Virus record (IMG/VR): IMGVR_UViG_3300047472_000102
Location: 11,371-75,370 of that record
Strand: one strand, 5' to 3'
DNA from: a virus
DNA length: 64,000 nucleotides
Notes under the pieces: model-generated
What the model saw: the letters and a program-made list of their open reading frames with translations, nothing else
What the model was told of the DNA's origin: nothing
The model's database searches: none
Shown: positions 21,109-21,175 of the stretch, in pieces
Layout of the letters: the number at the start of each line of letters is the position of its first letter
Position numbering within the stretch: position 1 is the first letter of the stretch
Translations under genes and position numbers: made by a program

Positions 21109-21175
21109 TTCCCTGAAAAGACTGCCCTTTCTAGAGGGGTTGAGATACGGAGACACTCCAGTCGCAGTAAGGGAA
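21109..21175 (+). ncRNA. ~67-nt branched RNA sharing motifs with the large ncRNA
   Basis: TTCCCT/AGGGAA and ACTGC/GCAGT stems with two internal hairpins; shares CCTGAAAAGA, ACTGCC and TTGAGATACGGAG with 18214-18437. Confidence 0.6.

Follow-up and report, generated by a model that had tools for sequence, protein, structure and literature searches.

A 67-nucleotide element among the tRNA genes of an N4-like phage shares collinear sequence blocks with an upstream non-coding module

Between the gene for tRNA-Leu and a tRNA-like mimic, the early region of an uncultured phage holds a 67-nt stretch whose short motifs recur, in the same order, in a much larger non-coding region upstream. A first-pass annotation, made from the sequence alone, had described this stretch as the minimal core of a large non-coding RNA and had placed both RNAs in one family built around a double T-loop that binds or mimics tRNA elbows. 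The locus therefore raises two questions: whether the 67-nt element and the upstream region are related at all, and, if they are, what kind of RNA the element might be.

The DNA analyzed here (the window, 64,000 nt) comes from an IMG/VR virus record of 75,370 bp that has terminal repeats. Its large terminase shares 75% identity with that of Agrobacterium phage OLIVR1 and 64-68% identity with those of N4-like phages (Schitoviridae) of Rhizobium, Sinorhizobium, and Ochrobactrum. Judged by sequence, this is an uncultured N4-like phage (Schitoviridae) related to Agrobacterium and Rhizobium phages. The structural and packaging genes run leftward and reach approximately 17.0 kb. The rightward early region opens with tRNA-Pro and tRNA-Asn. 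Behind them come about 500 non-coding nt, small open reading frames (ORFs) including an HU-like gene, tRNA-Arg, and further small ORFs; the region ends, in order, with tRNA-Leu, the 67-nt element, the tRNA-like mimic, and tRNA-Gln. No credible ORF covers the 67-nt element or the large non-coding region. The annotated position of the small copy, between tRNA-Leu and an anticodon-less mimic, is borne out by the following coordinates.

21024..21107, + strand: tRNA-Leu(UAA), CCA encoded, directly upstream of the 67-nt element
21109..21175, + strand: the 67-nt element, in the spacer between tRNA-Leu and the tRNA-like mimic
21174..21257, + strand: the tRNA-like mimic (Rfam tRNA match at 21182-21249), with a shrunken anticodon arm
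21377..21451, + strand: tRNA-Gln(UUG)
18190..18460, + strand: 5' module of the upstream non-coding region (RNA-A), holding all shared blocks but GCAGTA
18451..18675, + strand: 3' module of the same region (RNA-B), which finishes with a conserved TTGCAA-loop terminator hairpin

The mimic has an acceptor stem lengthened by AATAGGGA/TCCCTATT and is closest in sequence to the tRNA-Pro of the window. It has a homologue in OLIVR1 (L053:3066-3140 or, more narrowly, L053:3071-3137), where the 43 nt before the mimic are unrelated to the 67-nt element. The Rfam tRNA model scores the mimic at 32.8 bits and the OLIVR1 homologue at 52.3 bits; ARAGORN makes no call.

We found no sigma-70-like promoter or terminator-like site flanking the 67-nt element, so it would belong to a longer transcript. 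Its parts, all on the + strand, are as follows.

21112..21121, + strand: block 1, CCTGAAAAGA, identical to 18214-18223 and containing the pentamer TGAAA (21114-21118)
21121..21126, + strand: ACTGCC, the second block of the first-pass annotation, identical to 18419-18424
21125..21139, + strand: hairpin CCCTTTCT-A-GAGGGG, whose arms recur upstream as CCCTTTCT (18262-18269) and GAGGG (18277-18281)
21140..21152, + strand: block 3, the 13-mer TTGAGATACGGAG, identical to 18425-18437 and containing the pentamer TGAGA (21141-21145)
21149..21159, + strand: hairpin GGAG-ACA-CTCC of the MFE fold
21164..21174, + strand: GCAGTA followed by AGGGA; GCAGTA occurs also at 18614-18619

The MFE structure consists of a 6-bp closing helix, a GAAAA internal loop, a 4-bp helix, and two hairpins. 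AGGGA provides the 3' strand of the predicted closing helix, and TCCCT at 21110-21114 provides the 5' strand. By inspection of the sequence, ACTGC (within 21121-21126) could pair with GCAGT at 21164-21168, but the MFE fold prefers an overlapping GACT/AGTC pairing. The predicted energy is -21.9 kcal/mol (z = -1.5 compared with shuffles), and 14 of 200 shuffled sequences fold as well as or better than the element. The predicted fold is thus no significant gain over shuffles.

Several known identities were considered for the element and rejected. Neither 21109-21175 nor 18174-18680 has a match in Rfam 15, at the gathering threshold or at E <= 10, and a hammerhead or other ribozyme was rejected on this ground. 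A hairpin loop, TTCTAGA, resembles an anticodon loop, yet the D and T arms of a degenerate or split tRNA are absent, and both ARAGORN and the Rfam tRNA model leave 21109-21175 uncovered. A YrlA-type Y RNA was dismissed on the lack of an Rfam hit and on the opposite topology of the mimic. As for a small ORF, the only frame available starts with CTG; in the small copy it lacks a ribosome-binding site, and in the large one it is interrupted by an in-frame stop. No sigma-70-like site overlaps the 13-mer.

We then compared the element with the upstream region. The three motifs described earlier lie where they had been reported: CCTGAAAAGA at 18214-18223 and 21112-21121, ACTGCC at 18419-18424 and 21121-21126, and TTGAGATACGGAG at 18425-18437 and 21140-21152. 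The domain said to separate motifs 1 and 2 by about 195 nt in the large copy measures exactly 195 nt (18224-18418). Within the 64-kb window, the 13-mer and the 10-mer each occur at just these two sites. A 13-mer accompanied by a collinear 10-mer is a common configuration, however, with 14 instances in the window, mostly involving coding DNA. We therefore scored chains of collinear exact blocks against three null sets: 5000 dinucleotide shuffles, 5521 other 67-mers of the window compared with the large region, and approximately 2100 other 507-nt windows compared with the element.

The best chain of up to three blocks scored 31 (null mean 19, SD 1.7), and the three blocks of the first-pass annotation scored 28. 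A score of 31 was reached by none of the 5000 shuffles and none of the 5521 other 67-mers, three of which reached 28; the top score among the roughly 2100 other 507-nt windows was 25. Five collinear exact blocks, in the same order in both copies, cover 42 of the 67 nt, whereas the null scores averaged 28 and never exceeded 39. These blocks are CCTGAAAAGA, CCCTTTCT (18262), GAGGG (18277), the 13-mer, and GCAGTA (18614). None of the shuffles or genomic 67-mers matched the observed three-, four-, or five-block scores. We estimate the probability of such a result by chance at ~1e-4 per pair, or ~1e-2 when the many comparable pairs of elements are allowed for, which leaves a chance origin as a slim prospect. 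The similarity between the 67-nt element and the large region is, with high probability, real.

The description of the small RNA as a core of the large one holds insofar as the element is a collinear miniature that shares even more sequence than had been claimed; equivalence of the two folds does not follow. Two alignments compete. In the alignment that uses ACTGCC, the 195-nt difference between the copies corresponds to a domain closed by a 14-bp helix (probability 0.6) together with a small hairpin (0.79), and the extra 13 nt of the small copy likewise form a predicted hairpin. RNA paralogues usually differ by such stem-closed domains and hairpins. The predicted helix-closed insert and 13-nt hairpin would therefore favor relatedness of the copies at the RNA level. 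The alignment through CCCTTTCT...GAGGG puts the small-copy hairpin within the domain that is closed in the large copy; these alignments are thus mutually exclusive and never both collinear.

The 13-mer had also been reported to run into a GGAG...CTCY hairpin in both copies. This pairing is possible in each, with CTCC as the partner in the small copy (3-nt loop) and CTCT in the large copy (7-nt loop), but the partition function gives the large-region hairpin a probability of only about 0.1-0.2 and predicts several competing partners for the large-copy 13-mer. A closure of the large region analogous to that of the small copy (18207-18213/18619-18626 and 18419-18423/18614-18618) is possible but costs +9 kcal/mol and would overlap a hairpin that is also conserved in phage RHph_X2_28B. 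As modeled, the competing alignments, the competing partners of the 13-mer, and the costly closure would count against RNA-level relatedness.

The upstream region itself appears to be composite. By nhmmer, 18451-18674 is homologous to a stretch located after tRNA-Gln in RHph_X2_28B (E = 4.7e-5) and in ort11 (E = 2.8e-3). In contrast, the 5' module (~18190-18460) has no nhmmer match outside the window and is restricted to this phage; its isolated fold is of moderately greater stability than that of shuffles (MFE -88.9 kcal/mol, z = -2.2). Because homology is limited to the 3' part, the "large ncRNA" is better seen as a lineage-specific module joined to a conserved one, and the 67-nt element, by its shared blocks, would be a miniature of the lineage-specific 5' module and not of the conserved 3' module. 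The 3' module is an observation in its own right: an RNA module of ~225 nt with a TTGCAA-loop terminator lies behind a tRNA gene in three rhizobiophages, with no annotation in GenBank. A small hairpin is conserved in the alignment of this module with RHph_X2_28B, and the terminator stem differs among the three phages while the TTGCAA loop is unchanged. The copies are located as follows.

18451-18675 of the window: 3' module
L054:5837-6069: copy of the 3' module
L057:3731-3930: copy of the 3' module

A separate feature of the upstream region is a 16-mer at 18381-18396 that is identical, on the + strand, to 2551-2566 within the gene for the major head protein (1659-2867, - strand, phrog_1357). 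This match is flanked by two collinear 10-mers (18346/2047 and 18447/2777), so that at three sites + strand RNA there would be antisense to the capsid mRNA. By chance, roughly one 16-mer match per window is expected.

To look for further copies, we used mismatch-tolerant motif scans and nhmmer in place of a covariance model. Five complete related genomes yielded no copy, and neither did 55 N4-like early-region loci totaling 310 kb, which were fetched from IMG/VR, GenBank, and metagenomes via their flanking proteins. The relatives recovered by these flanking-protein searches are all distant (<=54% identity), and none has the shared blocks. In Logan contigs, the two closest protein relatives, P0002 and P0003, stand at 60% and 52% to the 82-aa protein encoded upstream. 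BLAST of both regions against GenBank phages yielded tRNA-like matches only. A scan of IMG/VR for ACTGCC-N(0-20)-TTGAGATACGG gave 48 hits, approximately the number expected by chance, all of them unrelated and with flanks unlike either copy; a scan of IMG/VR for the conserved 3' hairpin plus terminator gave none. The sequencing runs listed as holding this sequence include no RNA-type datasets. The proposed family thus has only two members, both in this phage, among the relatives, GenBank phages, and IMG/VR records searched. Lack of conservation in related phages had been named beforehand as an outcome that would refute it, and, as far as the comparison reaches, the absence of the motifs from those relatives speaks against the proposal.

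A near-identical variant provides a closer comparison. Run X2, a rhizosphere metagenome from a different study, contains a contig that is ~99.3% identical over this stretch. It has no changes in 18174-18624 (~450 nt) and none in the 84 nt of the mimic. Within the 13-mer, it carries T21146C and G21149A, the latter of which removes the first pair of the GGAG-ACA-CTCC hairpin; a further change, G21173A, lies in the closing helix, and another, C21108A, at the edge of the element. The three changes within the element are uncompensated and reduce its predicted stability from -21.9 to -14.5 kcal/mol. The 13-mer is therefore not invariant, and the predicted helices of the element are not protected. 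Local neutral divergence appears high, however: the final 82 nt of the upstream ORF carry four changes at third codon positions. Relaxed constraint is therefore not proved by three changes in 67 nt. Elsewhere in this variant, the 117 nt between the mimic and tRNA-Gln (21260-21376) are cleanly absent from a phage of roughly 99% identity, so this stretch is dispensable.

The proposal of a tRNA-elbow-binding core can be compared with well-described structures. In a T-loop, the base before the pentamer and the base three positions beyond the pentamer form a closing Watson-Crick pair, and two bases are bulged. Interdigitated double T-loop modules are found in the T-box stem I distal region, RNase P J11/12-J12/13, and the L1 stalk. 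Their two loops join head-to-tail across a short helix, either as a bulge plus an apical loop or as two junction strands of one helix; in the T-box, they are arranged as a bulge and an apical loop within one hairpin. The two pentamers of the element do fit the T-loop consensus as had been noted, since TGAAA (21114-21118) and TGAGA (21141-21145) match U-G/U-N-R-A, but they do so at close to chance frequency. This loose consensus is expected about once per 64 nt, and the element contains exactly two matches against about one expected, which is unremarkable. The bases that should close the loops, C21113/A21121 and T21140/C21148, are unable to pair, and their flanks are predicted to pair elsewhere in the MFE fold. 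In that fold, the pentamers occupy an internal loop and a junction and are separated by 22 nt that include a hairpin, an arrangement unlike that of T-box stem I; their separation in the large copy exceeds 200 nt.

It is accordingly very unlikely that the small and large RNAs form one family with an interdigitated double T-loop core docking tRNA elbows, perhaps that of the mimic. The pentamers do sit in shared blocks and in predicted unpaired segments, both are intact in the X2 variant, and their neighbors are tRNAs and a mimic that retains its elbow. Against these points stand the commonness of the pentamers, the missing closing pairs, the unlike topology, the wide separation in the large copy with its competing pairings for the 13-mer, and the silence of Rfam on either RNA, including any T-box or RNase P signal in the 67-nt element. 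The absence of homologues in the collections searched means that no covariation can be counted for the model, and the X2 variant alters the flanks without compensation. Beyond the consensus match, nothing was found in support of the claim that the core binds or mimics tRNA elbows, and its probability is low. A yet smaller probability attaches to the bolder version, in which the element and the 5' module represent a new class of phage non-coding RNA with a T-loop platform that docks the elbow of a tRNA or of the mimic; were it true, the phage would encode a receptor-plus-decoy pair interfering with host tRNA-targeting defense or processing enzymes.

The window also contains perfect hairpins with a 6-bp stem and a 3-nt loop (ATTAnT-atc/atg-AnTAAT) that are candidate promoters for an N4-type virion RNA polymerase (vRNAP). 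The first three, at 19530, 21660, and 21861, lie upstream of ORFs and have an A at the loop center of the template strand.

19523-19537, 21653-21667, and 21854-21868, also 22872-22886: candidate promoter hairpins, just upstream of early ORFs

The early-promoter hairpins of LUZ7-type N4-like phages are reported to have stems of 4-5 nt and 3-nt loops (PMC3715699). The 13-mer with its hairpin could conceivably be such a promoter acting at the DNA level, as GGAG-ACA-CTCC has a 3-nt loop with a purine at the template-strand center. We consider this exceedingly improbable, given the 7-nt loop of the large-copy hairpin and the far better candidates listed above.

Other RNA signals were noted nearby. 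Two hammerhead matches fall below the gathering threshold: RAGATH-1-hammerhead at 24548-24634 (32.6 bits, gathering 56.3) and Hammerhead_1 in OLIVR1 at L053:3960-4009 (31.4 bits, gathering 34). In related phages, 600-nt stretches near tRNA genes are non-coding or carry tiny annotated ORFs, and they contain T-arm-like hairpins; I1_6 and RHEph16 have long conserved blocks in common within these stretches.

L053:1860-2490 (OLIVR1): 600-nt stretch near tRNA genes
L056:2602-3250: 600-nt stretch near tRNA genes
L058:2191-2809: 600-nt stretch near tRNA genes

Three further readings concern how the shared blocks may have arisen. Coincidence, with the element an ordinary spacer, is improbable. It draws on the 14 occurrences of a 13-mer with a collinear 10-mer in the window, on the 16-mer and two collinear 10-mers that the same upstream region shares with the capsid gene, and on the many elements compared in the first-pass annotation; set against these are the block scores that no shuffle or genomic 67-mer attained and the fact that both copies are non-coding and on the same strand. 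We also regard it as unlikely, if somewhat easier to entertain, that the blocks are cis-acting signals, such as a processing site or a site bound by one phage or host protein, kept independently in two spacers and not left over from a common fold. Such signals would explain why identity is limited to short exact blocks separated by unrelated sequence and why block 1 lies shortly past a tRNA 3' end (4 nt after tRNA-Leu and 40 nt after tRNA-Asn). However, the other tRNA trailers of the window do not contain the blocks, relatives with the same tRNA set lack them, and the 13-mer in the small copy of the X2 variant has two changes.

The reading we prefer, to which we give about an even chance of being correct, is that the 67-nt element is a condensed, lineage-specific paralogue of the 5' module, lying as a spacer in a polycistronic early transcript. 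Counted in its favor are the location of both copies on the transcribed strand in spacers of the tRNA cluster, the block identity beyond every null, the privacy of the 5' module as opposed to the shared 3' module, and the variation of the element in X2, where the mimic and RNA-A do not vary. As found, it is a two-copy, single-lineage similarity without conservation or fold signal.

About 60% of the bases of the element are found again, as collinear exact blocks, in the module at ~18190-18460, in the region after tRNA-Asn. Under the paralogue reading, such collinear sharing would reflect local duplication followed by internal deletions or, conversely, the insertion of stem-closed domains into the longer copy. 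We infer the boundaries and the processing of the element from sequence. Lacking its own promoter and terminator, it would depend on tRNA-processing enzymes alone for release: RNase P would cleave where the acceptor stem of the mimic begins on its 5' side, near 21181/21182, and the opposite end would be released through 3' trimming of tRNA-Leu, by analogy with the release of T4 species 1 and 2 from a tRNA precursor. The product may then fold, as predicted, into a small closed RNA of three helices. If it has retained a function, it might bind the same partner as the larger module; the alternative is a decaying relic, and we lean slightly toward a weakly constrained relic or spacer.

If the element proves instead to be a selected, structured miniature, it would be the minimal functional core of a larger RNA and easy to study. 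Its main value, though, is as a pointer to an unusually RNA-rich early region in an N4-like phage, one that includes a mimic conserved in OLIVR1 and a 3' RNA module kept in RHph_X2_28B and ort11. Phage tRNA clusters often hold extra small RNAs, the roles of which have been obscure ever since T4 species 1 and 2 were sequenced.

The first-pass annotation had pointed to a similar stretch in T4 species 1 RNA. T4 rnaC (NC_000866, 70908-71046) does contain GGTTGAGATATGG, in agreement with the 67-nt element at 12 of 13 positions, and the two have the 10-mer GGTTGAGATA in common. This stretch is variable among orthologues, however: it reads GGTCGAGATG in IME523 and KM16 (orthologues at 82-86% identity) and is unalignable in the more distant orthologues KaAlpha and NM4.3. 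A profile HMM of five rnaC sequences recovered all five with nhmmer and detected nothing in the window at E <= 10. On this sequence comparison, the rnaC match is treated as a coincidence.

Three known systems place the element in context. It resembles double T-loop modules in having two U-G/U-N-R-A pentamers and tRNA-rich surroundings, but it differs from them in lacking flanking closing pairs and in its topology. The non-coding RNA that follows tRNA-Gln in RHph_X2_28B and ort11 is like the 3' half of the large region described here, terminator included, but is without the 5' module that carries the blocks common to the 67-nt element. The T4 species 1 and 2 RNAs (rnaC and rnaD) are small stable RNAs of unknown function that are cut from a tRNA-cluster transcript (PMC3014915, PMC9697503). 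The 10-mer shared with rnaC lies outside the conserved parts of that RNA (5' CGGTTCGAGGA, TAGCGTCAACTA, and the 3' T-arm and tail), all of which are absent from the 67-nt element. In kind, nevertheless, the element is like rnaC and rnaD: a small non-coding RNA among phage tRNA genes, presumably released by tRNA-processing enzymes.
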